Positions 48,247 to 64,000 of a DNA stretch of 64,000 bases are shown one piece after another. The stretch covers positions 65,497 to 129,496 of the forward strand of contig CAWKPF010000002.1 of the NCBI GenBank assembly GCA_963851415.1. The letters are read 5' to 3'. How positions within the stretch are numbered: position 1 is the stretch's first letter; every line of letters starts with the position of its first letter. The notes under the pieces are model-generated. The model did not search any database, had not been told where the DNA came from, and was given only the letters and a program-made list of their open reading frames with translations. The DNA is from an uncultured Acidobacteriota bacterium. GTDB taxonomy: Bacteria; Acidobacteriota; Thermoanaerobaculia; Multivoradales; Multivoraceae. Position numbers and translations under genes: made by a program.

Positions 48247-51202
48247 ATGAGCAGGGATCTCCATCGCTTCAGGACCGGGTTCGGCTCTTTGATTCTCTTC
48301 GTCGTGGCCGCGCTGGCGACGACACGGGGGGGCTTTGCACAGGCCGTGACGGGGAACGTCTACGGCACGGTGACCGACTCGGCGGGGCAATCGCTTCCCG
48401 GGGTCACCGTCACCATCGGTGGAATCGGAGCCGATCGCACTCAGTTCACCGACGCGCGGGGGCGCTTCCGTTTCCTGGGCCTCGACCCCGGAGAGTGGCA
48501 TCTCCGCGCTGAGCTCTCCGGCATGGGCTCGCTCGACTTTCCTGGGGTGGAGGTGCGCATCGGTCGCAACACGACGCTCCCGCTGGTGCTCCGACCGGCG
48601 ATGCAGGAAACGCTCACGGTCACTTCGGAGAGCCCCCTTCTGGACGAGCGCGAGCTCACCCAGGGCACCACGGTGACGCAGGTGGAGCTCGAACGGATTC
48701 CCACGGCACGCGATCCGTGGGCGATCGTGGGCCAGACGCCGGGCGTGCTGGTCGATCGCGTGAACGTGGGGGGAAGCGAGTCGGGTCAGCAGTCGAGCTT
48801 CCGGGCACAGGGGGTCGAGTCCCGTTCAGAACGACTGGCAGCTCGACGGAGTCCAGATCACCGATATGTATGGCCCAGGGGCCTCCTCGTCCTACTTCGA
48901 CTTCGACCAGTTCGCGGAGATGCAGTTCACCACCGGCGGCACCGACGTGACCAAGAACACGGCCGGCGTCGGAGTGAACCTGGTGACCAAGCGGGGCAGC
49001 AACGAGTTTCGCGGCTCGGCGCGATTCTTCAACACGAAAGCGCAGGGATACTTCGGAGGCTTCCTGCCTCAGGCACGAGTCAATGTCAACGAAGAGGACA
49101 TGGGTCCCGGACAGTCCCTCGACGACTACAAGGGCGCCCAGATCCGGGAGATCGAGGAGATGGGGTTCGAGGCCGGAGGCGCCCTGGTTCGCGATCGCGC
49201 CTGGCTGTGGGGCTCCTGGGGACAGAACGACATCCAACAGAACGCCGCGACGGGAACCGCCGACGACACCATTCTCGAGAACACTGCACTCAAGCTGAAC
49301 GCACAGTTCAGCCGCGCCAACAGCTTCGTCGCGTCATGGAACAACGGTGACAAGCAGAAATCCGGTCGCGAGGCCGGCAGCACCCGCCCCGACATCACCA
49401 GCTACAACCAGCGTGGCCCCTCCGCGATCTACCGCTTCGAAGATACGCACGTCTTCACCTCGAATCTGTTCGTCACGGGCACCTACTCTCTCAACGACCT
49501 CGGCTTCCAGCTGGCTGCGAAGGGCGGAGTCGGGCCCGACGCTCCAGAGTCGTGGCGCCGCAGCGACGGCGTGTGGCAGGAGAACTACATCAGCGGTAGC
49601 TCCACGTCTCCGGGCGACGAGATCAAGGTCGACTCGTCGTACTTCCTCAACACGGGGAACATCAACCACGAGCTGCGGGTCGGCGGCCGGTTCCGCCGGT
49701 CCGAGAACTCGAGTGTGTTCGCCTGGCCGGGGAAGGACGTCTTCACCTACAACACCACGAGCACCCACTTCGTGACCGCGAAGCGAGGCATCGGGACCCC
49801 GGTGCTCATGGAGTATTTTTCGCTCTGGGCACAGGACACCCTGAGCCTGGGGCGCTTCACGGTCAACGCCGGCTTGCGCTATGACGACCAGAAGGGGCGA
49901 AACCAGGCCGCCCGCGTGCCCGGCAACCCGATGGTGCCAAACGTGCTACCCGAGATCGAGTACGCGGGGGCGGCGCCCGACTTCACCTGGACGAGCCTGG
50001 CGCCCCGACTGGGCGTGACCTATGCCCTCGGCAGCGAGCGTGACACCTTGATCCGAGCCAGCCTGGCCCAGTTCGCGGATGCTCTCGGCTCGCGCTACAT
50101 CGATCGCACGAACCCGGCCGGCAACGTCTACGCCTACTTCGCGCTCCCCTACGTCGACGGCCCGTACACCGGAGACGGCAGCGAGCTCGACGATCCGGCG
50201 CGGGTCGACTTCGCCAACGGCTTCGACCCGGCAGACCCCTCGTCGCTCGATGACCCCGACCGCACCGACCCGGGATTCGATCCGCCGCTCACCACCGAGC
50301 TCGTGATCGGCGTCGAGCACGCGGTGCTCCCCGAGTTCGTGGTCGGACTCACGCTCACGGCACGCAACGTCGACAAGATCGAGGAGCTGAGGCCGATCAT
50401 CCGCAACAGCGACGGCACCGAGCGCACCGTGACCGCAGAGGACTACGTGCTCGACGGGAGCCTGAGCGGCACGATCGACGACCCGAACGCCGGCGGCCCA
50501 GCGAGGAGCTACGACGTGCCGGTCTACGCCCTGCGAGAGGACTTCCAGTTCACCGGCGGTGAGCTCCTGCTCAACGGCGCGCGCGAGCGGGACTACCTGG
50601 GCGCGGCGCTCACCTTTACCAAGCGTTTGGCGAATCGGTGGATGATTCGCGGGTATCTGAACTACGGCAGCGCCGAGTGGAAGGTCCCGGCCGAGTATCT
50701 GGCTCAGAACGACCCCAACAGAGACCAGGACGGCGGGGATCGGGATGGATCTCTGTTCGCCACTCGCTCGGGTGCCGGCGGCAGAGGGGAGCGGTTCCTG
50801 CAGTCGACGTGGACGTCGAACGTGACCGGCCTCTACCAGATCGCTCCCGATCGGCCGTGGGGATTCAACCTGTCGGGAGCGCTCACGGCGCGAGAGGGCT
50901 ATCCCATCCCCTACTTCAACGAGACCACGACCAGCGACGGCCTGTTCCGCCGCATCAGTGTGGTCGGCGACTTCGACGACTACCGGCTACCCACCATCGC
51001 CACCCTGGATCTGAGGTTCGAGAAGGAGTTCAACCTGACCGGCCCGGTCAACATGACCTTCGGGATCGACGCGTTCAACATCACCAACACAGGGACGGCG
51101 ATGTCACGGCGCCGCGACCTGAGCGTGTCGAGTGCGTACTGGCTCGAGGACAACATCTCGCCAAGGATCTGGCGGCTCGGGGTGCGTTTGAGCTGGAAGT
51201 GA
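48247..51202 (+). pseudogene. TonB-dependent receptor with carboxypeptidase-regulatory-like N-domain, carrying a single frameshift near 48810-48814
   Basis: Track ORFs 48133..49350 (signal peptide, VTGNVYGTVTDSAGQSLPGVTV...) and 48866..51202 (barrel, ends ...RLGVRLSWK) are one gene. The +1 frame reads ...GSSPVQNDWQLDGVQITDMYGPG... directly after ...SSFRAQG. The shift sits at a G5 run. Confidence 0.8.
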
Positions 51203-51764
51203 GGTCCGACCTTCGGCGAAACAGGTCCTCACTGAGAGCTCCGCGCACCAGGGCCCGACTGGGGGCTCTCCATCGAGGGTAGAATTATCCTTCGGCTGCT
51301 TCGACGAGATCAGCTTCGGAGTCATTGCCCAATCGAGTCGATACGGACCGTGAAAGATCATGGGAACGGGGTCCTCGACTGTGGGTTATCGATGGCCTCC
51401 GGTATAGGAAGAATTCACCATCCCGGAGTGCTACCCAGTGATCACTGTAGGCCTGATCGAGCAGCCGGACCTCGAGCAGATGGACGAGAGTGGCCGCAAC
51501 TGGACAGCGGTTCGTCGTCGCGAACCTCTCGTTGCGAAACAGATTGTCATTCCGCGCCTGGCCGGGCTCGGCGACGGCGGTTTGATGGCGTGGCAGGACA
51601 TCACGGGCCTAGCGGTACGGGGATAATCTCGCGAGCCCCTCGAGCCCCTCCGACCCCGTCTGCCTGTGGAGACTCCCGGACTCGGCTCCGAAAACTCCCA
51701 GGCCGCCACTCGGGGTAACAGCCCTCAGGACTCGTTCTCACCAGATCTGCATCGCTTTGCCAAC

Positions 51765-52931
51765 ATGAGAATCCTGCTCCTCAGCGAGATCTTCCCTCCC
51801 AAGACCGGTGGCAGCGGGCGCTGGTTCTGGGAGATGTATCGCCGCTTGCCCCGAGAGTGGGTTGCCATCGCCGCCGGGGACGATCCTGCGGCCGAGGCGT
51901 TCGACCGCAGTCACGACACGCCTCTCCACCGCGTTCCTTTGACCATGAACGAGTGGGGGGTCGTCAGTCTGAGCGGTTCCCTCGGGTACTTGCGGGCGCT
52001 CCGGAGGCTACGAACACTCGTTCGCGAAGAGCAGGTCACTAGCGTCCACAGTGGCCGCTGCCTGCCGGAGGGAGTCATGGCTCGAGCCCTGAAGAGCCTG
52101 TGCGGTGTCCCGTACGTCTGCTACGTTCATGGCGACGACGTGCGATCGGCTTCGCTGAGTCGCGAGCTGAGCTGGCTCGTGCGGTGGGTGTTCTCCGGCG
52201 CCGAATACCTGGTCGCCAACTGCAACAATACGGCAAAGATCCTCGTCGACGAGTGGGGCCAACCCCCGACTCACCTGGCGGTGTTGCATCCTGGCGTCGA
52301 CACTCGGAGATTCGCACCGGCACGTCGTGACCCGGCGGTTCGCGAACGGCTCGGTTGGGGCGAGCGACGAGTCATCTTGACGGTTGGCAGATTCCAGACA
52401 CGGAAGGGCCAGGATCGCATGATTCTCGCGCTGGCTTCGATTCGCGACGCGATCCCCGATGTGCTCTTCGTGATCGTCGGTGATGGCGAGACGCGCTCCC
52501 AGCTCGAAGGGCTCGTGGCCGACCAGGAGGTGGAGGCTCACGTCCAGTTTCTCGGTGAGCTACCGGACGAGGAGCTGATTCAGTGCTATCAACAGTGTGA
52601 CCTGTTTGCCTTGCCCAATCGGCAGGTGGGCACGGACATCGAAGGATTCGGCATGGTCTTGCTCGAGGCCCAGGCTTGCGGCCGTCCCGTTCTGGCCGGA
52701 GCCTCGGGAGGGACTTCCGAGACCCTGCGGGAAGGGGCGACCGGGGTGCTCGTCGAATGCTCCGATCCCTCGACACTGGCCGCCGGCGTGGTGGATCTGT
52801 TGATCGACCCAGAGAGGATGGACCGCATGGGCGAAGAAGCGCGCCGTTGGGCAGTCGATCAGTTCGACTGGGAGGCCCTGACCGAGCAAGCCATGGAGCT
52901 GTTCGACGGCGGGACGGCCCGCTCCCGATAG
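51765..52931 (+). CDS. GT4-family glycosyltransferase
   Basis: ATG 51765 (MRILLLSEIFPPKTGGSG...) inside track ORF 51666..52931. The C-terminal EGFGMVLLEAQACGRPVLAGASGG motif is typical of the GT4/GT-B fold. Confidence 0.8.
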   Translation: MRILLLSEIFPPKTGGSGRWFWEMYRRLPREWVAIAAGDDPAAEAFDRSHDTPLHRVPLTMNEWGVVSLSGSLGYLRALRRLRTLVREEQVTSVHSGRCLPEGVMARALKSLCGVPYVCYVHGDDVRSASLSRELSWLVRWVFSGAEYLVANCNNTAKILVDEWGQPPTHLAVLHPGVDTRRFAPARRDPAVRERLGWGERRVILTVGRFQTRKGQDRMILALASIRDAIPDVLFVIVGDGETRSQLEGLVADQEVEAHVQFLGELPDEELIQCYQQCDLFALPNRQVGTDIEGFGMVLLEAQACGRPVLAGASGGTSETLREGATGVLVECSDPSTLAAGVVDLLIDPERMDRMGEEARRWAVDQFDWEALTEQAMELFDGGTARSR

Positions 52932-52959: not shown

Positions 52960-54315
52960 TCAGCGCGAGCTCTTCAGCTTTTCCCCGAGTCGGCGTGCGG
53001 TGATCTCCACACCGCGACCGTGGATGACGTCTTCGTGATCGCCGGGAATGTCGACCAGAGTGATGTCCTTGGCAAGTCCCCTCCAGCCCAGTTCGGGGAA
53101 CTGGTCCTTGAACCAGCTTTCTGCGCCGTGGCGGAAGAGAATGACGGGAGCCGACAGTGCCTGCGGGCGATACCGTCGAAAGGCTCTCAGACAGCTCCGT
53201 TCCACGTAGCTGGGCCGCAGCGACTCCGGCAGCGGGATCCGCAGTGCGGTTCGGCCCCGGATCGCCAGACGCGTGGGAAGAGTCCGCATGGCGGCAGTCT
53301 GATCCCGCACGAGCGACAGCACGTTACCCAGCACGCTGCGGCCGAAGTAGACCAGGCGCTCCGCCACACCGAGTTTCGCGGTATTGGCGCGATGCCGACC
53401 GGCTCGCTCCTCGAGCGTCTCGTGCCAGGGGAAGAGGGTGTCGAACATCGCCAGAATCTCGACGCCCTCCCCGGCATCGGTCAGCTGGCGGGCAATCTCG
53501 AAAGCGACCACCCCGCCGAAGGAATAGCCGCCAAGACGATAGGGCCCCTTCGGTTGAAGCGACCGAATCTCCGCCACATGACGGGCGGCGAGTTGCTCGA
53601 TGCTCTCGGGAAAGGGCTCGCTGCCATCGGCACCCGGAGGCGCCAGCCCGTACACCGGCTGGTCCGAGCCGAGCTCTCGGGCCAGATCGTAGTAGTGGAT
53701 CGTCCGACCTGCCACGCAATGGGCACAGAACAGTGGAGGCTGTGAGCCCCGCGGTTGAATCTCGACCAGCAGCGAGTCTCGGCCGACGGCCGGCGCCCCT
53801 TGCAGCACCTCGGCGAGCCTCGCCACCGTGGGTCGCTGGAACACCGTATCCACCTGGATCGTCTGCCCGAGTCGCTCTCGAATCACGACCACGAGTCGCA
53901 GAGCTCGCAGAGAATGGCCGCCCAGGTCGAAGAAGTCATCGTGGATTCCGACAGGCTCGACGCCGAGCAGCTCGGAGAAGATGGTCACGAGGGTCTCTTC
54001 CAGGGCGTCGCGGGGCGCGCTGTCCTTCGAGGTCGCGCGTTCGGTGGCGGGCTCGGGAAGCGCGTCGCGATCGATCTTGCCGTTGACCGTTCGCGGCATC
54101 GCGTCCAACGTCACGAACATCGCCGGCACCATGGGCTCGGGCAACCGCTCTCGGAGGTGGCGGCGCAACTCCTCCGGCGTTGGAGCCGATCGGGAGTCGG
54201 GAACGACGTAGGCGACGAGCTTGGTCTCGCTTCTCACGCCGAGCTCGTCGAGACGCCGGGCGAGTGCCTCCCGCTGTGGCTCACCGAGTCGTTCGATTCT
54301 CGCTCGCAGTTCCAT
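52960..54315 (-). CDS. NRPS fragment: A-domain C-terminal part (A9-A10), PCP and thioesterase
   Basis: ATG 54315 (MELRAR...) overlaps the upstream stop (TGATG). KLVAYVVPD, LPEPMVPAMF (A9), NGKIDR (A10), FFDLGGHSLRAL (PCP), GYSFGGVVAFE (TE GxSxG). Confidence 0.8.
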   Translation of the reverse strand: MELRARIERLGEPQREALARRLDELGVRSETKLVAYVVPDSRSAPTPEELRRHLRERLPEPMVPAMFVTLDAMPRTVNGKIDRDALPEPATERATSKDSAPRDALEETLVTIFSELLGVEPVGIHDDFFDLGGHSLRALRLVVVIRERLGQTIQVDTVFQRPTVARLAEVLQGAPAVGRDSLLVEIQPRGSQPPLFCAHCVAGRTIHYYDLARELGSDQPVYGLAPPGADGSEPFPESIEQLAARHVAEIRSLQPKGPYRLGGYSFGGVVAFEIARQLTDAGEGVEILAMFDTLFPWHETLEERAGRHRANTAKLGVAERLVYFGRSVLGNVLSLVRDQTAAMRTLPTRLAIRGRTALRIPLPESLRPSYVERSCLRAFRRYRPQALSAPVILFRHGAESWFKDQFPELGWRGLAKDITLVDIPGDHEDVIHGRGVEITARRLGEKLKSSR

Positions 54316-57300
54316 CAGCGAATGGCCTTCACGATGACCATCGAGTCCGCCCACCAGGCATCCTCAGTGTCCTCGGGGATCTCCACAGGCTGCACCCGAA
54401 GCGAGAGCGATGAAAAATGCTCCAGCAGGGCCCGTTGGTGTCGACGGCTGAGGGAGTCGATCTCGGTGGACAGATAGCTGAAGACCCCTCCGGGGCGAAG
54501 GTGCCTCGCGGCAATGACAAAGAAGTGCTCCGCAAAGGTGATTCCCTCCACCATGTAGCGCAGGAACTCTTCCTCGTCGAGCGGAACGGCGTGAAAGAAG
54601 ATGCCATCGTACAGGCCGAGTCGATCTTCGACATCCTGCCACCGGCCCTCGAAGAGACGGATGTCGCGCTCGGCGAACCGTTCCCGAAACGGCCGGAAGA
54701 ACCGCTCCACACAGGACTGGTTTGCCTCGACCACAGAGTGGGATCGCACGCCGAGCTCCTGGATGAGTGCAGCGGACACGCCCCGACCGAAGCCGACTTC
54801 GAGAACGTCGCCGTGGTCCTGCGTGACGTCTTCGGCCATCGCTCTCATCACCGGGATCTGCCAGTCCTCCATGATCTCCTGCTCGGTCGGATCGTTGTGC
54901 TCCCGGTCGGGGACGGTCCCGTCGAAATCGCCGGTGGCGCCCCGCACGAACCGACGGGCGGTCCGATCGAGGTGCAGCAGATCGGCCGTCAGCTCGTCGA
55001 GGCTCTGCTCGAGGAGCCAGTTGCGCTGCGCGTCACGAGGCGGGCGAACGAAGTCTTCCTCATCGATACGAAGGGTGAGCTCGAACGCCTCTCGCCGGCG
55101 AGTGAACGAGGTCGCGGAGTCCCCGACTGCTCGGAGGAGACGCTCGACGGTATCAGTGTCGAGTGTCGAGAGACGCTCTGCGAGACCACCCGCCTCACGC
55201 GCGACGACGACGGCCTCGACGACACCTGAATGGGAACAGAGTGCCGCCTCGATCTCGCTGGGCTCGATCCGGTGTCCTCGAATCTTGAGCTGTTGGTCCA
55301 CGCGTCCCAGGAACTCCAGCTCGCCGCACTCGAGGAACCGAACGCGGTCTCCCGTGCGGAACAGTCGCCCTCCCTCGGCAAAGGGGTTGGTGAGAAAGGC
55401 GGGGTCGTCACGACCCCAGTACCCGCGCGCGATACCGGTACCTCCGAGATAGAGCTCTCCCGGCGCCCCGGCAGGCGTGGGCCTCCTCTCCTCGTCGAGC
55501 ACGTAGGCCAGACAGTCCGCGATGGGGCGGCCGATGGGAACGCGACCGCCCCCCTCGAGCTCCGTACAGTCGCAGACAGTGCTCCAGACCGTGGCCTCGG
55601 TGGGCCCGTACTCATTGAAGAGGCGGCAGTCGGGAAGCACCGCCCGGTGGGCCTGCACCACTCCCGGAGGGCAGGCTTCGCCCGCGACGATCACGACCCT
55701 GAGGGAGCGAAGGCTCGGATCGAGAATCTCTCGATAGAGAGCTGGAATGGACAGCAGGTGAGACACCTCGTGCCGCTGGATGATCTCTCGAATCTCGTGC
55801 GGATCCGGAAGATGTGTGCCCGGCGGCAGGCAAAGGGTCGCCCCTTCCCCCAGGGTCCAGAAGATCCCGGCCACGGAGCTATCGAAGGCGAACGAGGACA
55901 AGAGCAGGAACGAACGCAGCGATTCGCAGCCGTAGTACTGGGTTCGAGCCTGGGTCGAGTGCCAGAGATTCTCATGAGTGACCATCACACCCCGGGGCTC
56001 CCCGGTCGAGCCCGAGGTGTAGAGGATGTAGGCGAGGTCGCCGGGGTCCGGGGTTGTGGGAAGGTCGTCGCACTCCTCTGTGAAGTCCTCGACATAGAGA
56101 ATGTTGTCTGCCCCGAGACCCGCGCCGAGCGCCCGGGTGGTGAGCAAGAACTTCGACTGGGTGTCTGCGAGAATCTGCCGGGCCCGTTCGACCGGATAGG
56201 CCGGATCCAGAGGGACGTAGGCGCCTCCGGCCTTGAGCACACCGAGAACGGCGAGCAGCATGGAGGGCGAACGGGGCACGAAGATGCCGACGGGCTCCCC
56301 CCGCCCGACCCCCAGGCGCACCAGCTCGCGTGCGAGCGAGTTGGCGCGCCCGTTCAGCTGGCGGTAGCTCCACGCTTCCTCAGCCGCCACGATCGCGACT
56401 CTGTCCGGCGTCCGGCCCGCGACGCTCTCGAACCCGCGGTGCCAGAGCCTCTCCCCTCCAGCTTGCAGTGCCGGCCCCCGCACGGCTTGCGGAGCGGCCA
56501 TCTGGATCGTTTCCAGGGGAGAGTCCGGGCGGGTTGCGAGCTGGTCGAGCGCAGTGCCGAAGTGGTCAGCCATGCGCTCGATTGCGGGCTCGCCGAAGCG
56601 AGCGCGGTCGAAGATGAACGAGACGACCAGTCGGTCTCCCGGCTGAACCACTACTGCCAGAGGAAGGTTGGTGTGGGCATCGAAACGCTCGTCCTCGATC
56701 GCTAGCGTGGAGGGTGGCTGTTCAGGCACCCTGTAGTTGGCATAGGAGAACAGACTGTCGAAGAGCGGGCGACCGGCTCTCCCGATCCAGCTCTGGATCT
56801 TCCGTAGCGAGGTGTGCTCGTAGCGGCGGCCGTGAGCCTGCCGCGCCTGCAGGTCACGCAACCACTCCCCCGCCGCGACACCCGAGGGCACCTGCGCTCG
56901 ACAAGGAGTGGTGTTCATGAACAGACCCACCATCTCCTCGGCGCCGTCGAGTCCCGAAGGGCGTCCCGCGGTCGTCGCACCACAGAGAATGTCGTCACGC
57001 CCGGTGTAGCGCGCGACCAGAACGCACCACGCTCCGAGCAGCAAGGTGCTCAGGGTGATGCGCTCACGCCGAGCCGCTGCGATCAACGGGGCGCTCGGCA
57101 CCAGCAGGTCGCGGCGAGCATGACCCTGCCCGGAGCCCGCTGGAAGATCGAACGGAGTGGGCTCGGCGTCCGCCAGCTCCTGTTGCCAGTAGCGCTTGGA
57201 TTCCTCTTCGTCGGAGTGGGCCGCGAGCCAGTCGAGGAAATCCGAATACGCTCTTGGCTCGGCCAGCTCATCTCCACGGTAGCACTCGAACACCTCGCGT

Positions 57301-58352
57301 AGCACCACAAGTCGAGACCAGCCGTCGAGAATCATGTGGTGATAGCTCCACAGGAACCGCCACCGATTCTCGCCAGTTCGGGCCAGGGCCAACCGCAAGA
57401 GTGGCGCCTTCTCCAGATCGAAGCCACGCTCCTTGTCTGCCTCGCTCCAGGCCACGATCTCGTCCTCCTCGCTGCGTCCCCGCCAGTCCAGGAGCTCGAG
57501 TGTGGGAGTCGCGTCGGACTCTACCAACTGTAGAGGTGTTTCCCGATCGTGCCAGAGAAAGCGAAGGCGAAGGGCATCGTGGCGTCGCGTCACGGTTCGC
57601 CATGCGCCTTCGAGTCGCGCCGGATCGAGCTCGCCCTCGATCCGACAGGAGTACTGCTCGTGGTAGACGCCGGCACCCTCGCTCTCGAGGCTGTGAAACA
57701 GCATCCCTTCCTGGAGCGGCGAAAGCGGCCTTTCTCGCGGCGCGCAAGGAGCGGCGATCGTGGTTGGACCGGTAGTGCGCTCCGCCGCCGAGGCAAGCCG
57801 TTCCACAGTTGGATGTTCGAACAGGTCAGAGGGCTCCACGGAGATCCCTGCCTCGCGCGCCCGGGCGACGATTCGAATCGCGGTGATGGAGTCGCCGCCC
57901 AGCTCGAAGAAATCGTCGTGGATTCCGACTCGCTGCAACCCGAGCAGCTCGCGCCAGATCTCCGCCAGTTTCTCCTGCGCGGGTGTGCAGGGCTCGGCGA
58001 AGGTCGAGGAGGCCTCGGGCTTCGGCAGGGACCCGCGATCGACCTTTCCCCTCGAGGTGAGAGGAAGCTCGTCGAGCCGAACGAACACGGAGGGAACCAT
58101 GAAATCCGGCAGTCTGCCAGCCACCCGAGAGCGGAGATCGTCGGCTGCGATCTCACGATCGGCGACGTAGTAGGCGGTGAGCCCGGCCCGCTTCTCGTGG
58201 GCCCGTTCCGGCTGGTATCCAATCTCGTTCAGCCGAGCCCGCACGGTGGCCGAGTCGATTTCGTCATCGAGCTCGGCGAGCGCCTCGTCACGCTCCTTGT
58301 GGCCGAGTCGAACGTCCCAGCTGTAGGGAAGCGCGTAGTTGTGGAAACCCAC
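54315..58352 (-). CDS. NRPS: end of module 1 (A9-A10, PCP), then module 2 C domain and A domain (A1-A8) followed by a GAMT-like methyltransferase domain
   Basis: LPDFMVPSVF / RGKVDR, FFELGGDSITAI, PLSPLQEGMLFH + HHMILDGWS (C), LAYILYTSGSTGEPRGV, NEYGPTEATV, LKIRGHRIEPSEIE (A8), then ...MEDWQIPVMRAMAE...VLEVGFGRGVSA... to the stop. The N-terminal 45 residues continue the PP-loop domain of the upstream ORF. Confidence 0.85.
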   Translation of the reverse strand: MGFHNYALPYSWDVRLGHKERDEALAELDDEIDSATVRARLNEIGYQPERAHEKRAGLTAYYVADREIAADDLRSRVAGRLPDFMVPSVFVRLDELPLTSRGKVDRGSLPKPEASSTFAEPCTPAQEKLAEIWRELLGLQRVGIHDDFFELGGDSITAIRIVARAREAGISVEPSDLFEHPTVERLASAAERTTGPTTIAAPCAPRERPLSPLQEGMLFHSLESEGAGVYHEQYSCRIEGELDPARLEGAWRTVTRRHDALRLRFLWHDRETPLQLVESDATPTLELLDWRGRSEEDEIVAWSEADKERGFDLEKAPLLRLALARTGENRWRFLWSYHHMILDGWSRLVVLREVFECYRGDELAEPRAYSDFLDWLAAHSDEEESKRYWQQELADAEPTPFDLPAGSGQGHARRDLLVPSAPLIAAARRERITLSTLLLGAWCVLVARYTGRDDILCGATTAGRPSGLDGAEEMVGLFMNTTPCRAQVPSGVAAGEWLRDLQARQAHGRRYEHTSLRKIQSWIGRAGRPLFDSLFSYANYRVPEQPPSTLAIEDERFDAHTNLPLAVVVQPGDRLVVSFIFDRARFGEPAIERMADHFGTALDQLATRPDSPLETIQMAAPQAVRGPALQAGGERLWHRGFESVAGRTPDRVAIVAAEEAWSYRQLNGRANSLARELVRLGVGRGEPVGIFVPRSPSMLLAVLGVLKAGGAYVPLDPAYPVERARQILADTQSKFLLTTRALGAGLGADNILYVEDFTEECDDLPTTPDPGDLAYILYTSGSTGEPRGVMVTHENLWHSTQARTQYYGCESLRSFLLLSSFAFDSSVAGIFWTLGEGATLCLPPGTHLPDPHEIREIIQRHEVSHLLSIPALYREILDPSLRSLRVVIVAGEACPPGVVQAHRAVLPDCRLFNEYGPTEATVWSTVCDCTELEGGGRVPIGRPIADCLAYVLDEERRPTPAGAPGELYLGGTGIARGYWGRDDPAFLTNPFAEGGRLFRTGDRVRFLECGELEFLGRVDQQLKIRGHRIEPSEIEAALCSHSGVVEAVVVAREAGGLAERLSTLDTDTVERLLRAVGDSATSFTRRREAFELTLRIDEEDFVRPPRDAQRNWLLEQSLDELTADLLHLDRTARRFVRGATGDFDGTVPDREHNDPTEQEIMEDWQIPVMRAMAEDVTQDHGDVLEVGFGRGVSAALIQELGVRSHSVVEANQSCVERFFRPFRERFAERDIRLFEGRWQDVEDRLGLYDGIFFHAVPLDEEEFLRYMVEGITFAEHFFVIAARHLRPGGVFSYLSTEIDSLSRRHQRALLEHFSSLSLRVQPVEIPEDTEDAWWADSMVIVKAIR

Positions 58353-61300
58353 GTTCCTGGCGATGCACCCAGATCCCCGCGTCGTTGATCAGGCAATTGG
58401 TGGAGCGGCCGGTATCCTCGGGCCGGATCCAGGGGGCACGCTCGTTCAGAGAACGACAGCACCTCCTCGAGGCTCACGTCGCAGTAGCGATAGAAGTCGA
58501 CGTACGAGGTCTCTTCGAACACCGAGTCGTCGCGGAACATCGATACGTCGAGGTTCCGGGACACCGCATCGTCCATGCGGTGATAAGCCTTGCGCGCCTC
58601 GAGCACCGTACGGTCGATCTCCGATGGGTCGCGCAGACCGATGCGGAAGAAGTCCGCGAGTCGGGTCTCGAAGATCTGGCCACGAGAGAGCCCCGTCACG
58701 ATGACACGCAGACCGCGCTCGCGAGCGAGCGAGACGGCGAGGGTATAGATGGTCTTGAAGCAGCCCTGGCAGACATTGCTGAAGCGCGCGAGGCTGTCCG
58801 CGAAGATGGTGTTCATCGCCGGAGTGCTGCCGAAGACGAGCTCGAGGCCGAGATCCTCGGTGGCACGCCGGATATTCTCCTTGGCACCGTCGGAGATGAA
58901 GCCGTTGTCGAGCGTGAAGACGAGAGGGGTCCGCCCGAGGGCAACGACCTGGTAGAGGGCATAGGTGCTGTCCTTGCCTCCGCTCAGGAGCATGATGCAA
59001 TCCTGGCCCCTGGCGTTTGGTCGACACTTCTCGTCGAGCTCGGACGCGAGCTCCTCCATCGTGCCGAAGTAGCTGCGAGCCTCTGCCTCGTAGGTCGAGA
59101 AGTCGCGACAGATATTGCACACCCCGTCCGAGTCGAGCAACGCTTCAGGATGGCGCGAGGTGAGCCCACAGCGAACACAAAAGCGCTCCTCCTCCCCACC
59201 GACGAGATCGACGACGCACTCCTCGATCTCGGGCATCTCGAGAAGGATCCGTTCGATCTCTGCCGGCTCGACCCGCGCCCCTCGCACCTTGAGTTGACGA
59301 TCGGCCCGACCGAGGAACTCGAGACAACCGTCGGGCCGCTGGCGGCAGAGATCGCCGGTGCGGTAGCGACCGTGGAATCGGTCACCTCCACGGTAGCCCT
59401 CGGCGACGCCCGGCCCTTCGACCACCAATTCGCCCTCCTCCCCCGGCGCTGCATCGACCGTCGCTCGAGTGCCATCGATGGCAAATCCGATCGGCACGGA
59501 CGCAGCCGTGTCGCGTTCGGGGTCGAAACGGTACACGACGCAGCCCACCGTGGCTTCTGTCGGTCCGTACTCGTTGAAGATCGTGATCCGACCTTCGGAG
59601 CGGCCCACGATCGCCCCAGCGAGCTCGGAGCGTAGGTCCTCACCGCCGACGACGAGCAGACTCAGTCTCTGAGGCATGGGCTCGCGCGAGCGAAGGATCG
59701 CCAGGTGAGAAGGAGTGAGCTTCACGACGTCCACTTCGTCGCGCTCGAAGACGTCGACGATCGAGAGGTCCGGCCCCCTCTGGGGCTCCGGATAGACGAC
59801 GACGCGTCCGCCAGATACCAACGGCACGAAGAGTGACGTCACCGTCAGATCGAAAGCGACAGACGAATGCAGGGCAAAGGCGAGGGGGCCATCCGAAGCA
59901 TAGGCGCGATGTGCCCAACCCACATAGTGGGCGAGGGCCCGGTGTGAGACCTCGACCCCCTTGGGACGCCCGGTCGACCCCGAGGTGTAGATGACGTAGG
60001 CGAGATCGTCTTTCGAGACGCGGTGCGGCGCACCCGACTCGTCGCCCCCCGTCTGGGTATCGTCGTCGAAGACCGCACAGGCGCCCGAGTCCTCGATCAG
60101 CCCGTTGCTTCGCTCTTCAGGATGACGTGGGTCGAGGGGAAGATAGGCTGCTCCTGCACCGAGCACTCCGAGGATCGCCGCCACCAGATCCGGAGTGCGC
60201 CGCATCCGGACTGCCACTACTGCGCCGGGGCCCGCACCCTGGCGACGTGCCTCCGCGGTCCACTGGGCCATGCGCGAAGCGAGCTCCCGGTAGCTCCATC
60301 GCTCTCCGGCGCCACTCAGAGCAACGGCCTCCGGAGTCGCCTCGGCCTGTCGCAGAAACATGTCGATTACCGTCGGGGCGGGCTCGATGGGCTGGTCGAG
60401 ATCGTCGAGCATGACGTCCAGGATGGCGAGATACTCTTGTGCGATCTGGTCGCGCCGACTCCGCGGGAATGAGTCTTCGTTCAGATCGAAGGACAGGGTC
60501 GTCTGTCCCAGCCCACCGAAGTCGTGTACCTGGAGTCGCAGGCTGTGGGCACGATCGCCATAGCCGGGATGCACCCACTCTGGCTCTGCCCTGGAACCGG
60601 CAATCTGTGGGATCCCGGCGGTGATGTAGTTGAGCACCACGTCGTAGGGCCGGGAGTGGACGACGTGGCTGCTTCCTGGCCGGGCGTTCAGAAGCATCCT
60701 CTGCGATTCGTCCCGAGTCTTGACGAAGAGAGAGCGGAAGGTCTCGCCCTCTTCGATTCGCGCATGCATCGGGAAGATCTCGATGAACAGGCCGATCGTC
60801 TCCTTGAAGGCCGCGGTGGGACGATTGTGTGCTGGAGCGAGGAACGCAGGGCTCCGATTGCCCGCCACACGGTAGAGCAAGGCGAAGAGGGCAGTTGCGT
60901 AGAGTTGAAAGCGAGCCAGGTCGGACGTGAGCCCACGGATTCCGTCGGACGAAGCGAGCTCTGCGAGTCGGCGTTCGCGCTCTTCGCCGAGAGCGTACGA
61001 GCTTCTGACCGTTCGGGAGCCACGACGCGAGGGTCTGTGCCCGTAGAAGACACAGGGCGCGAAAGGCTCTTCGAGCTTCTCTCGCCAGTAGGCGACGGCC
61101 TTCTCATGGCGAGGGCTCATCACCTGGGACCGCTCCCAGTCGACGTAGTCTTCGAACTGAGGCAGAGGCTCGGTCTCGGATAGGGTGTTCTCGAGGACGC
61201 GCCGGTAAAGCTCCTCGAGTCGGCCGAAGAGGATGCCACAAGACCAGCCGTCGGTCACCAGATGATGCTGGTTCAAGAAGAATCGGGCAGTTCCGTCACC

Positions 61301-61669
61301 CAGTCTCACCAGAACCGCATCGTAGAGACACTTCGCGAGGTCGAACTGGCGTGCGCTTCGAGTGGCGACCCACTTCGTGTACGCCTGGGCATCCGCGAGC
61401 TCGATCTCCTCCAACGAGGCAGGCACCTGCGAGAGCACCTCGCGGTACGGGACACCTACGCTCTCGAAGATCACCGTACGCAGAGCGTCACTGCCGGCGA
61501 CCAGCGCATCGAAGGCCGCCCGCAATGCCTCGACATCGATCGATCCCTCGCACACCTGCGACAAGGCCATGTTGTAGAGCGGCGCGTCGGGATCCAACTT
61601 CTGCCCGGTCCAAAGCAGAAACTGACCGCGCGACAGGTTGGACCGATCGAACGGAGAACGCTCGTCCAT
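58229..61669 (-). CDS. NRPS module 1: N-terminal C domain and A domain (A1-A8) followed by an embedded PP-loop ATP-pyrophosphatase (AANH) domain; the 3' end is out of frame
   Basis: SRGQFLLW, HHLVTDGWS (C), LAYVIYTSGSTGRPKGV, NEYGPTEATV, LKVRGARVEPAEIE (A8), then CVRCG...CNIC, LLSGGKDS, CQGC. After ...LSFSERA (about 58440) the reading continues in other frames into ORF 54315..58352, so the last 69 codons of this track ORF look like off-frame readthrough. Confidence 0.85.
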   Translation of the reverse strand: MDERSPFDRSNLSRGQFLLWTGQKLDPDAPLYNMALSQVCEGSIDVEALRAAFDALVAGSDALRTVIFESVGVPYREVLSQVPASLEEIELADAQAYTKWVATRSARQFDLAKCLYDAVLVRLGDGTARFFLNQHHLVTDGWSCGILFGRLEELYRRVLENTLSETEPLPQFEDYVDWERSQVMSPRHEKAVAYWREKLEEPFAPCVFYGHRPSRRGSRTVRSSYALGEERERRLAELASSDGIRGLTSDLARFQLYATALFALLYRVAGNRSPAFLAPAHNRPTAAFKETIGLFIEIFPMHARIEEGETFRSLFVKTRDESQRMLLNARPGSSHVVHSRPYDVVLNYITAGIPQIAGSRAEPEWVHPGYGDRAHSLRLQVHDFGGLGQTTLSFDLNEDSFPRSRRDQIAQEYLAILDVMLDDLDQPIEPAPTVIDMFLRQAEATPEAVALSGAGERWSYRELASRMAQWTAEARRQGAGPGAVVAVRMRRTPDLVAAILGVLGAGAAYLPLDPRHPEERSNGLIEDSGACAVFDDDTQTGGDESGAPHRVSKDDLAYVIYTSGSTGRPKGVEVSHRALAHYVGWAHRAYASDGPLAFALHSSVAFDLTVTSLFVPLVSGGRVVVYPEPQRGPDLSIVDVFERDEVDVVKLTPSHLAILRSREPMPQRLSLLVVGGEDLRSELAGAIVGRSEGRITIFNEYGPTEATVGCVVYRFDPERDTAASVPIGFAIDGTRATVDAAPGEEGELVVEGPGVAEGYRGGDRFHGRYRTGDLCRQRPDGCLEFLGRADRQLKVRGARVEPAEIERILLEMPEIEECVVDLVGGEEERFCVRCGLTSRHPEALLDSDGVCNICRDFSTYEAEARSYFGTMEELASELDEKCRPNARGQDCIMLLSGGKDSTYALYQVVALGRTPLVFTLDNGFISDGAKENIRRATEDLGLELVFGSTPAMNTIFADSLARFSNVCQGCFKTIYTLAVSLARERGLRVIVTGLSRGQIFETRLADFFRIGLRDPSEIDRTVLEARKAYHRMDDAVSRNLDVSMFRDDSVFEETSYVDFYRYCDVSLEEVLSFSERACPLDPARGYRPLHQLPDQRRGDLGASPGTWVSTTTRFPTAGTFDSATRSVTRRSPSSMTKSTRPPCGLG

Positions 61670-61670
61670 C

Positions 61671-61913
61671 TCAGTCCTTGCGCCGCTCGACGTAGCGGGC
61701 GATGGAGGACACGCTCCGAAAGTTCTCGATGGTCACATCCTCTGCGGGCACGACGATGCCGAATTCTTCCTGCAGAAAGGTGACCAGGAGCATGACTCCG
61801 ATCGAGTCGATCGGATGATGGGTGAGGAGGTCGTCGTCCGCGGCGGGTATCGCACTCGGCTCACCGAAGATCTCGACGGCGAGGAACTGGGCTATGGTTT
61901 CTGTCGTTGTCAC
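61671..61913 (-). CDS. free-standing acyl/peptidyl carrier protein
   Basis: 80 aa. The phosphopantetheine site context is LTHHPIDSIGVMLLVTFL. Its stop lies 1 nt before the NRPS start, and it overlaps the upstream adenylating-enzyme gene by 4 nt. Confidence 0.8.
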   Translation of the reverse strand: MTTTETIAQFLAVEIFGEPSAIPAADDDLLTHHPIDSIGVMLLVTFLQEEFGIVVPAEDVTIENFRSVSSIARYVERRKD

Positions 61914-63484
61914 GATCGGCCGTCTCCATCCTCGCTCAGGGCGGGGTAATCGATCTTCCCGGAAGACAGGCGCGGGAACGATTCCACGAGCTCGATGCGT
62001 CGAGGAACCGCGTGCGGCGGGACGAGAGACCGGAGATGCGCGATGACCTCCCGCGGTTCGAGCATCCTGCCGGCTCGCACCTTGACTGCCGCCTCGATGG
62101 CGCGGCTGTCACCGTCGGGCAGCGCGAACGCGGCGGCCTCCTCGACCGCGGGATGGGCGAGCAGGGCGTGCTCGATCGCTTCGAGCTCGATCCTGTAGCC
62201 CCGGATCTTGACCTGCCGATCCAATCGTCCTACGAACCGGAAGCCATCTCGCTCGAGCACCTCGACCAGGTCCCCGGTCCGGTAGAAGACCTCCTCTCGC
62301 CCGCCATCACGACGGCGCCGGTGGAAAACCTTCTCGTTGAGATCCGGCCGGTTCCAGTAGCCGGCCATAAGGGTGGGGCCACGCACCAGAAGCTCGCCCA
62401 CGGCGCCGATGCCGACCGGCGCACCGTGGTCGTCGACAACGATGCACTCCATCCCCGATGCTGCCTCGCCGATGGGGATCGGGGCTTCGTCGTCTGCGAT
62501 CGGTGGGACGTCGTAGCAGGTACAGCCGTTGGTTTCGGCCGGGCCGTACATGTTGTTGAAGCGAACATCGGGGAGTAGTTCCATGAGGTGGCGCAGGTGC
62601 TTGGTCGGGGTGCTTTCTCCGCCGTAGATGATCCAGCGTAGCTCGCTGAGGTCCTGCTTCTCGAGGGCACCGCGCGTGAGCAGCTGAACGAGGGCGAAGG
62701 GCACGGTGAAGAACACGCTGATGCGCTCCTGCGAAAGGAGGGCCGCGTAGCTCGCCGGCATCTTCGTGTGGGCCTCGGGGACCACCACCGTCGCTGCGCC
62801 GGCCAGGGCGGCAGCGAAATAGTCGAAGATCGACATGTCGAAGTGGAGCGGCGCCTGGTTGGTCAGTCGATCTTCCGGACGGAGGCCATACCTCGTGCAT
62901 GCCCAGCGGCAGAAGGCGAGGCAACTCTCGTGAGTGTGCATGATGCCCTTGGGCCGCCCCGTCGAGCCAGAGGTGTAGATGATGTAGGCGAGGTCATCAC
63001 CGATGACGTCGGGATCCGGCCCAGAATCTTCGGCCGCCGCATGGGCGTCGCTCCACGATTCGGTTCGAACGTCGAGCTCCCCTGGCGCGAGACCCACGAC
63101 CTGCGTCAGCGCGACCCCCTCTTGTTCGAGCACCGCCGCGACCGTGTCCGCCAGTTTCGGGGCGCTCACGAGATGGCGAATACCGCAGTCTCTCAGCACC
63201 TCGGCCAGCTCGGACACCGGGGCAGCGGGATTGAGCGGAACGTAGGCGGCACCCGCACGCAGCACGCCGTGGACGCCGATGCCGGTTTCGGCACTCTTGT
63301 GGAGCAGTATCCCAACGCGGTCGCCACGTCGAACGCCACCGTCGACGAGCAGTCGCGCAAGTCCGTTGGCTTCCCGGGCGAGATCTGACCACGAGAGAGT
63401 GCGCTGCGCGAAACAGACGGCGTCGCGCCCCGAGTGGTGCTCGACGTTGTGACGCAAGACGTCGGGAAGCGTGAGTCTCGTCAT
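61910..63484 (-). CDS. free-standing adenylate-forming enzyme (A-domain/DltA-like)
   Basis: 524 aa. LAYIIYTSGSTGRPKGI, FDMSIFDYF, NMYGPAETNG, YRTGDLV, GRLDRQVKIRGYRIELEAIE, SSGKIDY. Confidence 0.85.
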   Translation of the reverse strand: MTRLTLPDVLRHNVEHHSGRDAVCFAQRTLSWSDLAREANGLARLLVDGGVRRGDRVGILLHKSAETGIGVHGVLRAGAAYVPLNPAAPVSELAEVLRDCGIRHLVSAPKLADTVAAVLEQEGVALTQVVGLAPGELDVRTESWSDAHAAAEDSGPDPDVIGDDLAYIIYTSGSTGRPKGIMHTHESCLAFCRWACTRYGLRPEDRLTNQAPLHFDMSIFDYFAAALAGAATVVVPEAHTKMPASYAALLSQERISVFFTVPFALVQLLTRGALEKQDLSELRWIIYGGESTPTKHLRHLMELLPDVRFNNMYGPAETNGCTCYDVPPIADDEAPIPIGEAASGMECIVVDDHGAPVGIGAVGELLVRGPTLMAGYWNRPDLNEKVFHRRRRDGGREEVFYRTGDLVEVLERDGFRFVGRLDRQVKIRGYRIELEAIEHALLAHPAVEEAAAFALPDGDSRAIEAAVKVRAGRMLEPREVIAHLRSLVPPHAVPRRIELVESFPRLSSGKIDYPALSEDGDGRS

Positions 63485-63486
63485 GG

Positions 63487-64000
63487 TCAGAGTCCGAGTA
63501 GACGTGCGATCGTCAGGCGCTGGATGTCGGAGGTGCCACCCCAGAGCACGGTTCCGATCGAGTCCCGAAGGTCACGCTCACATCCGGTTTCCGTCAGGTA
63601 CCCACGTCCGCCGTGGATTCGCACGGTATCGAGGCCGGACTCGAGGGCGCTCTCGGCAACGAACAGCTTGGCCGCGGCTGCCTCGAGATGGGCCGAGTGC
63701 CCGTTCATCCGGAGAGCTGCGACACGATAGACCAGTAGACGTGCGGCTTCGAGTCGCACCTTCATGTCGGCGATCCGGTTCGACACCGACTGAAACTTGC
63801 CGATCGTCTGCCCGAACTGTCGACGCTGGCGCGCAAACCGAACCGCCGAGAGCAACTCTCGCTCCATCATTCCGACGTGGCTGGCCAGCATGCAGCTGCG
63901 TTCCCAGGCCAGCGAATCCGAAGCGATCGCGAGACCACTCCCTTCCGGTCCGATTCGGCCGTCGTCCGCGGCCAGACAATCCTCGAATGCCAGGGCACCG
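63487..64000 (-). CDS. acyl-CoA dehydrogenase family protein (C-terminal part; gene runs off the window)
   Basis: The frame stays open from 63487 to the window end. It reads ...GSGLAIASDSLAWERSCMLASHVGMMERELLSAVRFARQRRQFGQTIGKFQSV...RIHGGRGY...GGTSDIQRLTIARLLGL, typical of the ACAD C-terminal helical domain. Confidence 0.8.
   Translation of the reverse strand, partial: GALAFEDCLAADDGRIGPEGSGLAIASDSLAWERSCMLASHVGMMERELLSAVRFARQRRQFGQTIGKFQSVSNRIADMKVRLEAARLLVYRVAALRMNGHSAHLEAAAAKLFVAESALESGLDTVRIHGGRGYLTETGCERDLRDSIGTVLWGGTSDIQRLTIARLLGL

Follow-up and report, generated by a model that had tools for sequence, protein, structure and literature searches.

The minus-strand operon that spans position 52960 to past position 64000 of the window (the whole 64,000-nucleotide stretch analysed here, from contig CAWKPF010000002.1 of an uncultured Acidobacteriota bacterium) is described as an orphan member of a widespread family of nonribosomal peptide synthetase (NRPS) clusters, likely producing a small peptide of three units. 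The full pathway proposed for it, to which a probability of about 0.6 is assigned, would join a proline-derived cap, an asparagine (Asn) whose side chain is remodelled on the assembly line and a histidine (His) that may become methylated. Two features carry this proposal, namely an AMDH domain of the kind found in CysH and AlbIV that interrupts the first adenylation (A) domain, and a second A domain divided over two proteins next to a methyltransferase (MT) related to guanidinoacetate N-methyltransferase (GAMT). The cluster is uncharacterised, as had been supposed by the sequence-only reading (an earlier inspection of the letters and their open reading frames, made without database searches), and its first insert joins an already known domain type.

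The domain map was built from Pfam, NCBIfam and PDB searches. Foreign sequence separates motifs A8 and A9 in both A domains, a point on which the sequence-only reading had been right, and Pfam detected neither insert when run on whole open reading frames (ORFs), giving for the isolated inserts only weak ThiI, QueC and Methyltransf matches. Insert 1 follows GRADRQLKVRGARVEPAEIE...ECVVDLV and precedes GLTAYYV...LPDFMVP...SRGKVDR, and the C-terminal subdomain (Asub) of this first A domain is contiguous with it in all relatives. Once reconstructed across frames, the window insert is 51% identical over 325 residues (E=1e-124) to the AMDH domain of CysH, whose sequence was taken from the supplement of PMC7966384. 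The host A domain shows the code DLTKVGEVG, with DLTK[IV]GEVG being found in 71 aligned family members; DLTKIGEVGK is the Asn/beta-cyanoalanine (Cya-3) code of albicidin AlbIV, an A domain that holds a 342-residue insertion of the adenine-nucleotide alpha-hydrolase superfamily (PMC12283262). Considering both this identity and the Asn code of the host, insert 1 is assigned by homology to the AMDH type of CysH and AlbIV, which is already characterised, and not to the unfamiliar kind that the sequence-only reading had seen in it.

The name AMDH was given to the CysH/AlbIV insert by Gross et al. 2021 (Nat Commun 12:1696), who placed it in Asn-specific A domains and already remarked on numerous orphan homologs, all within A domains for Asn (PMC7966384). 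In vitro work and domain deletion showed that the CysH domain dehydrates L-Asn bound to the thiolation (T) domain to beta-cyano-L-alanine, while isoasparagine is formed when the hydroxylase CysJ acts beforehand (PMC7966384). By analogy, the AMDH domain of the window would carry out an ATP-dependent dehydration or isomerisation of Asn. Literature searches combining interrupted adenylation with amidotransferase, or PP-loop with NRPS, returned nothing by those terms, nor did one for 8CNZ, and two reviews on interrupted A domains name only methyltransferase, ketoreductase, oxidase and monooxygenase inserts.

Beyond its NRPS relatives, the reconstructed 339-residue insert 1 matches NCBIfam TIGR03573 over positions 2-320 of 344 (E=1.2e-26), with a score of 94 bits that stays below the family cut-off of 203.2. 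It exhibits the PP-loop ATP motif SGGKDS, invariant in the family and contained in LLSGGKDSTYAL, and an N-terminal CxxC...GxCxxC zinc motif that reads CVRCG...DGVCNIC; N-acetyl sugar amidotransferases (NASATs) are defined precisely by a PP-loop SGGxDS and a tetracysteine CxxCXn[GN]xCxxC (PMC10607449). An AlphaFold (AF2) model of the insert-1 homolog P0124 (predicted local distance difference test, pLDDT, of 84.9) gave LpNASAT 8wex as top Foldseek match (E=1.5e-11, target-normalised TM-score 0.56-0.57), followed by the PP-loop enzymes YcfA and GMP synthetase. Three further cysteines are invariant besides those of the zinc ribbon, one in RSTNC and a pair in NVCxGCFK whose CxxC aligns with that of PDB 8cnz, pointing to the possibility of an Fe-S site in the style of TtuA/LarE.

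These likenesses had suggested an NRPS-novel NASAT-type domain forming an amidine or a thioamide, which was dropped as the principal interpretation after the AMDH literature and the CysH match. Such NASAT-like or TtuA/YcfA-like chemistry, turning the amide carbonyl into an amidine or thioamide, would account for the nearest solved fold being a NASAT and the next ones including the thiolating enzyme YcfA, for a TIGR03573 match across the full length, for the additional invariant cysteines aligned with 8cnz and for the dark brown colour described for CysH (PMC7966384). It is nonetheless considered very improbable: the 51% identity to the CysH domain comes with all seven conserved regions in common, so that the same reaction is likely, and no conserved nearby gene offers a partner delivering ammonia or sulfur. 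Moreover, nitrile formation is PP-loop chemistry as well, by analogy with QueC.

In the window copy, the AMDH region does not keep the continuous reading frame expected of an AMDH-interrupted Asn A domain. Three-frame translation of 58200-58560 showed the coding sequence running through all three frames in succession, with the first change falling in ...ttc t ctg aac... and the second within a GGGTTT run. Contiguous proteins of relatives match the window in frame -1 (to ~58433), frame -2 (58449-58345) and frame -3 (from ~58424), identity to them over the frame -2 stretch being 77-83%, and the same region is a single open frame of 1,400-2,650 residues in 70 relatives. The family-invariant motifs DTGRSTNCLIND and HNYALPYSWDVRLGH are intact across the shifted stretch. 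A serine/threonine kinase-nSTAND1-WD40 gene elsewhere in the window (37340-41931, minus strand) is similarly broken, showing at least five frame segments and at least four frame changes upon comparison with its neighbouring intact 1577-residue paralog (42548-47281, minus strand), as expected either from an assembly rich in indels or from decay of this copy. Because the invariant motifs are intact and the kinase gene is broken in a similar way, the AMDH frameshifts are read as probable assembly indels. They are thus most likely sequencing or assembly errors, and the gene is therefore probably intact in the organism.

The contrary view, in which the frameshifts are genuine mutations and the large NRPS gene is a pseudogene without product, is unlikely but keeps some weight. 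Two +1 changes so close together, a second gene whose frame changes at least four times when set against its paralog, and the presence of the shortened 1146-residue ORF as such in the protein library (P0241) would all fit a decayed locus. Against it, the invariant motifs are preserved between the shifts and on both sides of them, without in-frame stops or deletions, the second shift sits in a GGGTTT run typical for indel errors, and the remainder of the 11-kb operon is open; in addition, frameshifts in unrelated genes of the window suggest a matter of assembly quality, not of selective decay.

Three open frames cover the NRPS part of the operon, in which Pfam places Condensation and AMP-binding (58229-61669), AMP-binding_C, PP-binding, Condensation and AMP-binding (54315-58352) and AMP-binding_C, PP-binding and Thioesterase (52960-54354), so that the core (Acore) and the Asub of each A domain lie in different frames. 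Since the boundary between the first two frames consists of frame changes and is no gene boundary, the true coding units are C-A(insert1)-PCP-C-Acore-MT (54315-61669) and Asub-PCP-TE (52960-54315), where C stands for condensation domain, PCP for peptidyl carrier protein and TE for thioesterase. These replace the 'C-A*-PCP' and 'C-A*-PCP-TE' proteins of the sequence-only reading, which contained neither the frameshifts nor the split of the second A domain over two proteins. Its single operon of six minus-strand open frames holds as an operon, with four tight junctions (+2 nt between the acyl-CoA dehydrogenase, ACAD, and the free A enzyme; -4 nt between the latter and the carrier protein; +1 nt between carrier protein and NRPS; and a 1-nt overlap, TGATG, between the MT-containing and Asub-containing ORFs), the 58229-61669/54315-58352 junction being instead the two frameshifts. 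Its two modules with a terminal TE are borne out by Pfam, and so is the extension of the operon past the window, whose end cuts the ACAD C-terminus in a frame still open through 63999.

Insert 2 turned out to be of a different nature. In module 2, the 294 residues downstream of A8 are similar to GAMT from human and rat (3orh, E=1.5e-16), while a phmmer search of the PDB at E<=1 returned GAMT entries and no 5wmm (TioS), that is, no NRPS M domain. Homologs exceed 1,100 at E<=1e-5, being mostly stand-alone proteins of 262 residues in PF27704 (GuanidinoAc_N-MeTrfase), with a minority fused to an AMP-binding domain. Conservation extends to S-adenosylmethionine (SAM) motif I (VLEVGFGRG) and further motifs of the family, and the LYDTYPL segment of GAMT reads FFHAVPL in the window and FFHTYPL or FFHA[VF]P in the family, the former version being displayed by the stand-alone subfamily and the latter by the subfamily fused to Acore, to which the window belongs. 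Insert 2 is accordingly annotated, from its sequence, as a class I methyltransferase belonging to PF27704, the guanidinoacetate-methyltransferase family, and not as a canonical NRPS M domain. The sequence-only reading had taken this insert too for an unfamiliar type; methyltransferases are the commonest class of A-domain inserts, though the GAMT-like family is an unusual one. Whether the inserts are ordinary NRPS tailoring domains, which that reading had doubted, is thus answered half in the affirmative by the profile searches. A literature search for GAMT together with an adenylation domain returned no paper.

The methyltransferase ends with ...WWADSMVIVKAIR and is closed by a TGA stop at 54315-54317, which is overlapped by one base by the ATG at 54315-54313 that opens the next frame. 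The second NRPS protein hence starts MELRARIERLGEPQREALARRL... and continues into the A9/A10 subdomain, PCP and TE. This arrangement is no peculiarity of the window: the MT ends at the same point in 20/20 MT-carrying relatives, the helical head RIERLGEPQREALARRL is conserved at the N-terminus of Asub proteins in 15 relatives, and all relatives with a readable downstream ORF (15/15) show a start codon overlapping or near the MT stop, followed by a similar helical head and the Asub. Judged from these sequences, a genuine stop codon divides the second A domain between two ORFs, and relatives conserve this split.

The MT occupies a frame of its own, apart from Acore, in about 14 of the 20 MT-carrying loci and is fused to Acore in about six. 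When separate, it gives rise to a three-gene layout made of C-Acore with a helical tail of ~50 residues, an MT of 262 residues, and head-Asub-PCP-C; two stand-alone MT genes retrieved by protein search show the same setting. The three-gene form is found in loci L012, L016, L022, L028, L033, L035, L036, L038, L054, L076, L077, L080, L082, L084 and L085 (~12.8-18.6 kb in most of them), and a C-PCP-TE protein lacking an A domain often follows. By comparison, the L019-type locus reads C-A(AMDH)-T-C-Acore-MT plus Asub-T-TE, and that of the isolate Saltatorellus ferox Poly30 (NZ_CP036434) lacks the MT. A related locus in a metagenome-assembled genome of a Xenococcaceae cyanobacterium (L086:5965-10891) contains MT, Asub-PCP-C, C-PCP-TE, HupE_UreJ_2 and ornithine cyclodeaminase genes; a C-Acore gene is missing from the 8 kb upstream, where a tRNA-synt_1c (GluRS-like) gene is found instead, 585 nt before the MT.

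A domains with this same His-type code were also collected from beside AMDH modules in relatives. Among the 54 obtained, 29 keep A10 and core in one ORF and are thus uninterrupted, and the others are split around the MT, apart from a few that did not resolve; a fully fused A-MT-A arrangement occurs in none of the 54. The code DSA[CASLG]xAEVW is present in 21/21 MT-associated domains, the window copy reading DSASIAEVW, and the listed codes for His include DSALIAEVWK (PMC12283262).

With regard to how both inserts came to occupy equivalent positions, the sequence-only reading had pointed to homologous re-entry linkers and, from them, to a shared insertion 'socket' filled with different cargo. 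Their GLTAYYV/KLVAYVV part, however, belongs to the A domain itself, as the strand that comes after the a8-a9 loop. As for the remaining linker, a hidden Markov model (HMM) of 16 Asub heads gives the 69 genuine AMDH tails scores that do not exceed those of shuffled sequences. Neither would a socket at this place be new, since the a8-a9 loop is already a documented hot spot for insertion (PMC8341866, PMC11355689, PMC11342130).

Upstream of the NRPS, the three small genes are compatible with a starter cassette. With 383.5 bits, the free A enzyme clears the cut-off (317.4) of TIGR01733, the model for amino acid adenylation domains, and its PDB matches include LgrA A2 (E=5e-116) and the proline ligase PltF, 6o6e (E=4.8e-82); it is predicted on this basis to be of the amino-acid-activating type. 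In NCBIfam, the ACAD fragment matches PigA best (E=1.5e-52), with RedW, an L-prolyl-PCP dehydrogenase, next (E=3.6e-45). A full-length ACAD ortholog from the relative L019 reaches 363.6 bits for PigA (cut-off 500) and 351.8 for RedW (cut-off 650), with the next family at 266.7, and its best PDB match is the prolyl-ACP (acyl carrier protein) dehydrogenase 4irn (AnaB; E=3.4e-117, 395 bits versus 289 for the next entry). The ACAD is therefore likely to be a dehydrogenase acting on an aminoacyl(prolyl) carrier protein. In 17 relatives, an ornithine-cyclodeaminase-like gene that might supply proline is conserved. Taken together, a starter unit in the form of a proline-derived cap, either pyrrole-2-carboxyl or pyrroline-carboxyl, is reasonably probable.

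The first C domain taking its group from the free carrier protein is in keeping with the sequence-only reading, which had left open an acyl or aminoacyl starter for an N-acylated product; given TIGR01733 and the AnaB/PigA/RedW matches, a fatty acyl is probably not involved and the aminoacyl type is favoured. Lipoinitiation by ACAD, a fatty-acyl-AMP ligase (FAAL) and an ACP had been contemplated and was rejected on the NCBIfam and PDB matches. Its fuller version, a fatty-acyl-initiated lipodipeptide line with two unknown insert types in a common homologous socket, parallels crz1-crz6 in the order ACAD, ligase, carrier protein, C-A-T-C-A-MT and Asub-T-release (PMC11342130), and the weak NCBIfam matches of the carrier protein are indeed to ACPs. 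It is nevertheless held to be quite unlikely, because the free A enzyme passes TIGR01733, the ACAD ortholog scores 395 bits with AnaB and a far lower 289 bits with the acyl-CoA dehydrogenase that comes next, relatives also conserve an ornithine cyclodeaminase gene, insert 1 matches a known AMDH and insert 2 a methyltransferase, and linker homology is undetectable.

The AMDH family proved large. The search of public genomes that the sequence-only reading had proposed for its A-insert architectures was fruitful: a scan of species-representative genomes yielded 170 genomic loci with contiguous insert 1, distributed over Planctomycetota, Acidimicrobiia, Gemmatimonadota, Acidobacteriota, Proteobacteria and other groups, and the MT was present in 20 relatives. 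At the protein level, 517 clusters at 50% identity match AMDH with E<=1e-30, and the best 150 of these 517 are almost all NRPSs of 1,350-3,500 residues with the AMDH at about residue 900-1150. Insert-1 homologs of ~550 residues were considered as separate PP-loop-Asub-PCP proteins and discarded, their contexts being contig-truncated or frameshifted long-read fragments. Homologous clusters in two long contigs from ENA (L001 and L003) are broken into many short ORFs in a pattern resembling frameshift errors, and such fragmentation explains many of these ~550-residue database 'proteins'.

Across many phyla the AMDH-Asn module is nearly always paired with a His module. Other neighbours, lying up to 10 kb from the AMDH module, were counted in relatives L005-L084, the window ending before such genes could appear. 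Co-conserved genes encode a membrane protein with a HupE_UreJ_2 domain (35 loci), a GT1 glycosyltransferase (20 loci), a protein of ~560 residues without family match (12 loci) and a phosphopantetheinyl transferase (PPTase; 11 loci). Two neighbour clusters (c5 and c6) that had looked conserved were set aside, since their ORFs run antisense to the genes for the free A enzyme and the ACAD.

Considering these data, synthesis would begin with the free A enzyme charging the free carrier protein with an amino acid that is probably proline, and with the ACAD-type flavoenzyme oxidising the loaded residue to a pyrrole-2-carboxyl or pyrroline-carboxyl thioester. C1 would then couple this starter to Asn on PCP1, where AMDH, in the presence of ATP and to judge from its homology to CysH, would convert the tethered side chain to beta-cyanoalanine or isoasparagine. 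C2 would add histidine, the substrate suggested by the code of A2. As the A2 core and the subdomain with the catalytic lysine are on separate proteins, adenylation in module 2 should require the association of both, as shown for Crz1/Crz2. The MT may methylate PCP-bound histidine on its alpha-amine or on an imidazole nitrogen, and the TE would release the product. To this proposal the present analysis contributes homology, architecture and conservation, while the AMDH chemistry was demonstrated with CysH and the function of a split A domain with Crz.

Several observations weigh against this pathway: (i) the specificity codes of the A domains were read by hand from motif positions; (ii) the code of the free A enzyme, DMFTIGMGC, is variable among relatives and matched no verifiable code, and the best PDB match of this enzyme is the glycine module of LgrA, ahead of PltF; (iii) the ACAD scores fall under the NCBIfam equivalog cut-offs for PigA and RedW; (iv) no CysJ-type hydroxylase is seen in the part of the operon within the window, past which the operon runs; (v) the insert-2 family has a histidine at the position aligned with the aspartate of the GAMT DTYPL segment, which is the catalytic base of GAMT; and (vi) insert 1 contains two +1 frame changes, at ~58450 and 58345-58350, ~100 nt apart.

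Positions of all features of the operon are collected in Table 1. On its far side, a GT4-family glycosyltransferase gene (51666-52931, plus strand) converges with the operon end across a 28-nt gap. No conservation of this gene was observed within 10 kb in 80 relatives, and in one relative (L002) a similar GT4 gene adjoins a C-A-PCP-TE gene. Further away, a 778-residue ORF (48866-51202, plus strand) displays a strong coding signal (G+C content at third codon positions, GC3, of 0.87) with no Pfam or NCBIfam match.

Table 1. Predicted features of the NRPS operon, listed in the direction of transcription, with window coordinates.
Feature	Coordinates	Strand	Evidence
ACAD C-terminus, 170 aa, cut by the window edge	63487..64000	(-)	Pfam Acyl-CoA_dh_1 E=2e-38
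Free-standing adenylation enzyme, 524 aa	61910..63484	(-)	Pfam AMP-binding + AMP-binding_C
Free-standing carrier protein, 80 aa	61671..61913	(-)	Pfam PP-binding E=3.4e-7; DSIG serine motif
C1 condensation domain, NRPS N-terminus, HHLVTDG	60380..61669	(-)	Pfam Condensation E=1.8e-47
A1 core (A1-A8), code DLTKVGEVG(K), Asn-type	59195..60379	(-)	Pfam AMP-binding
Insert 1, AMDH domain, PP-loop ATPase, N-acetyl-sugar-amidotransferase superfamily	58212..59194	(-)	CysH-AMDH match
A1 subdomain (A9-A10), catalytic Lys within SRGKVDR	57987..58211	(-)	Pfam AMP-binding_C
PCP1	57732..57986	(-)	Pfam PP-binding E=1.6e-17
C2 condensation domain, HHMILDG	56448..57731	(-)	Pfam Condensation E=1.5e-78
A2 core (A1-A8), code DSASIAEVW(K), His-type	55200..56447	(-)	Pfam AMP-binding
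Helical tail + insert 2, GAMT-like class I SAM methyltransferase (PF27704)	54315..55199	(-)	PDB 3orh match
Second NRPS protein start: helical head, then A2 subdomain (A9-A10), Lys in NGKIDR	54016..54315	(-)	Pfam AMP-binding_C
PCP2	53776..54015	(-)	Pfam PP-binding E=5.8e-16
Thioesterase, GYSFGG, + stop codon	52960..53775	(-)	Pfam Thioesterase E=6.9e-32

The interest of this family resides first in its AMDH domains, which are among the few enzymes known to form a nitrile or isoasparagine on an assembly line. Only albicidin and cystobactamid have been tied to AMDH, and hundreds of orphan NRPSs carry it; the multi-phylum family combining AMDH-Asn and His modules is thus a concrete target for genome mining. 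Its assignment to the NASAT/PP-loop superfamily, and its zinc ribbon and three more invariant cysteines, lead to mechanistic hypotheses that can be tested. The authors of the 2021 work, who sought only a radical-SAM motif (PMC7966384), did not have such hypotheses because no structural template then existed.

The second point of interest is the split module. A split A domain was called unique in 2024 (PMC11342130), and the split found here recurs across phyla, always with the GAMT-like methyltransferase and often with the latter as a separate gene. It constitutes a natural system for studying the action of Acore and Asub in trans and the evolution of interrupted A domains, and may suggest cut sites for NRPS engineering. 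A more speculative extension, regarded as doubtful, is that the GAMT-like MT and the two halves of the His A domain assemble into a non-covalent 'interrupted A domain' of two or three proteins, that the present forms are frozen intermediates, and that the products make up a class of metal-binding peptides. If so, the uninterrupted, free-MT-wedged and Acore-fused forms would be a series that records the origin of interrupted A domains through insertion of a gene into the A8/A9 hinge. Likewise, the conserved core of Pro-derived cap, cyanoalanine or isoasparagine and His with or without N-methylation, together with the HupE/UreJ-type membrane protein, would then define new, small, nitrogen-rich metal-binding peptides.

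Comparison with known systems helps to situate each part of the locus. The starter genes resemble the prolyl-carrier cassettes AnaC/AnaD/AnaB, PltF/PltL/PltE, PigI/PigG/PigA and RedM/RedO/RedW in having an adjacent free A enzyme, small carrier protein and ACAD, the window ACAD being nearest AnaB, PigA and RedW; they differ in an ACAD that scores below equivalog level and in a free A enzyme whose nearest match is not PltF. Insert 2 shares with GAMT (3ORH, 1XCJ) the fold, the SAM motifs and the ME(R/D)W(E/Q)xPxM motif, but has an additional N-terminal segment of ~70 residues (FIRPPRDxQRNWLL) and sits in an NRPS His module instead of serving creatine synthesis.

As regards insert 1, the NASATs WbuX, WbpG and LpNASAT (TIGR03573, 8WEX) have in common with it SGGKDS, the CxxCXn[GN]xCxxC zinc motif and the overall fold. 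They form, however, an acetamidine on a sugar, whereas insert 1 is embedded in an NRPS and its characterised AMDH relatives make a nitrile or isoasparagine. With the AMDH domains of CysH and AlbIV the likeness extends to a domain of ~330 residues between A8 and A9 of an A domain with the Asn code DLTKxGEVGK, and to SGGKD(S). CysH, for its part, is a stand-alone A-T module feeding a para-aminobenzoic acid (pABA) assembly line, while the window AMDH is part of a C-A-T-C-A line, in its first elongation module, with another starter and a His module; neither a CysJ hydroxylase nor a CysQ O-methyltransferase is seen, and the window copy has two frameshifts.

Canonical interrupted A domains (TioS 5WMM, KtzH, M types I-VI) likewise hold a class I SAM methyltransferase in the a8-a9 loop, but each is one polypeptide, whereas in the window family a stop codon follows the MT every time; between the M domain of TioS and insert 2, no sequence similarity is detectable. 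The closest architectural parallel is the single published split A domain, that of corallorazine Crz1 (C-A-T-C-A-nMT) and Crz2 (Asub-T-TD) reported by Dreckmann et al. 2024, in which A2 adenylates Gly only when both proteins are mixed, according to a gamma-18O4-ATP exchange assay (PMC11342130). Both systems are bimodular, with a first protein that ends in Acore and a methyltransferase, a second that provides Asub, T and release domain, and ACAD, ligase and carrier-protein genes preceding the NRPS. Crz nevertheless uses Ser in A1 (with a dehydrating C2), Gly in A2 and reductase release, and the codes of the window are Asn- and His-type, so that by substrate they do not belong to the same gene cluster family. 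The Crz MT is described as a conventional NRPS N-methyltransferase (nMT), that of the window being a GAMT-like PF27704 protein, and in the window family the MT is more often a separate 262-residue gene, giving a three-protein A domain. It is the GAMT-like MT joined with the conserved two- or three-ORF split of the His A domain that is new here relative to the single example of 2024.

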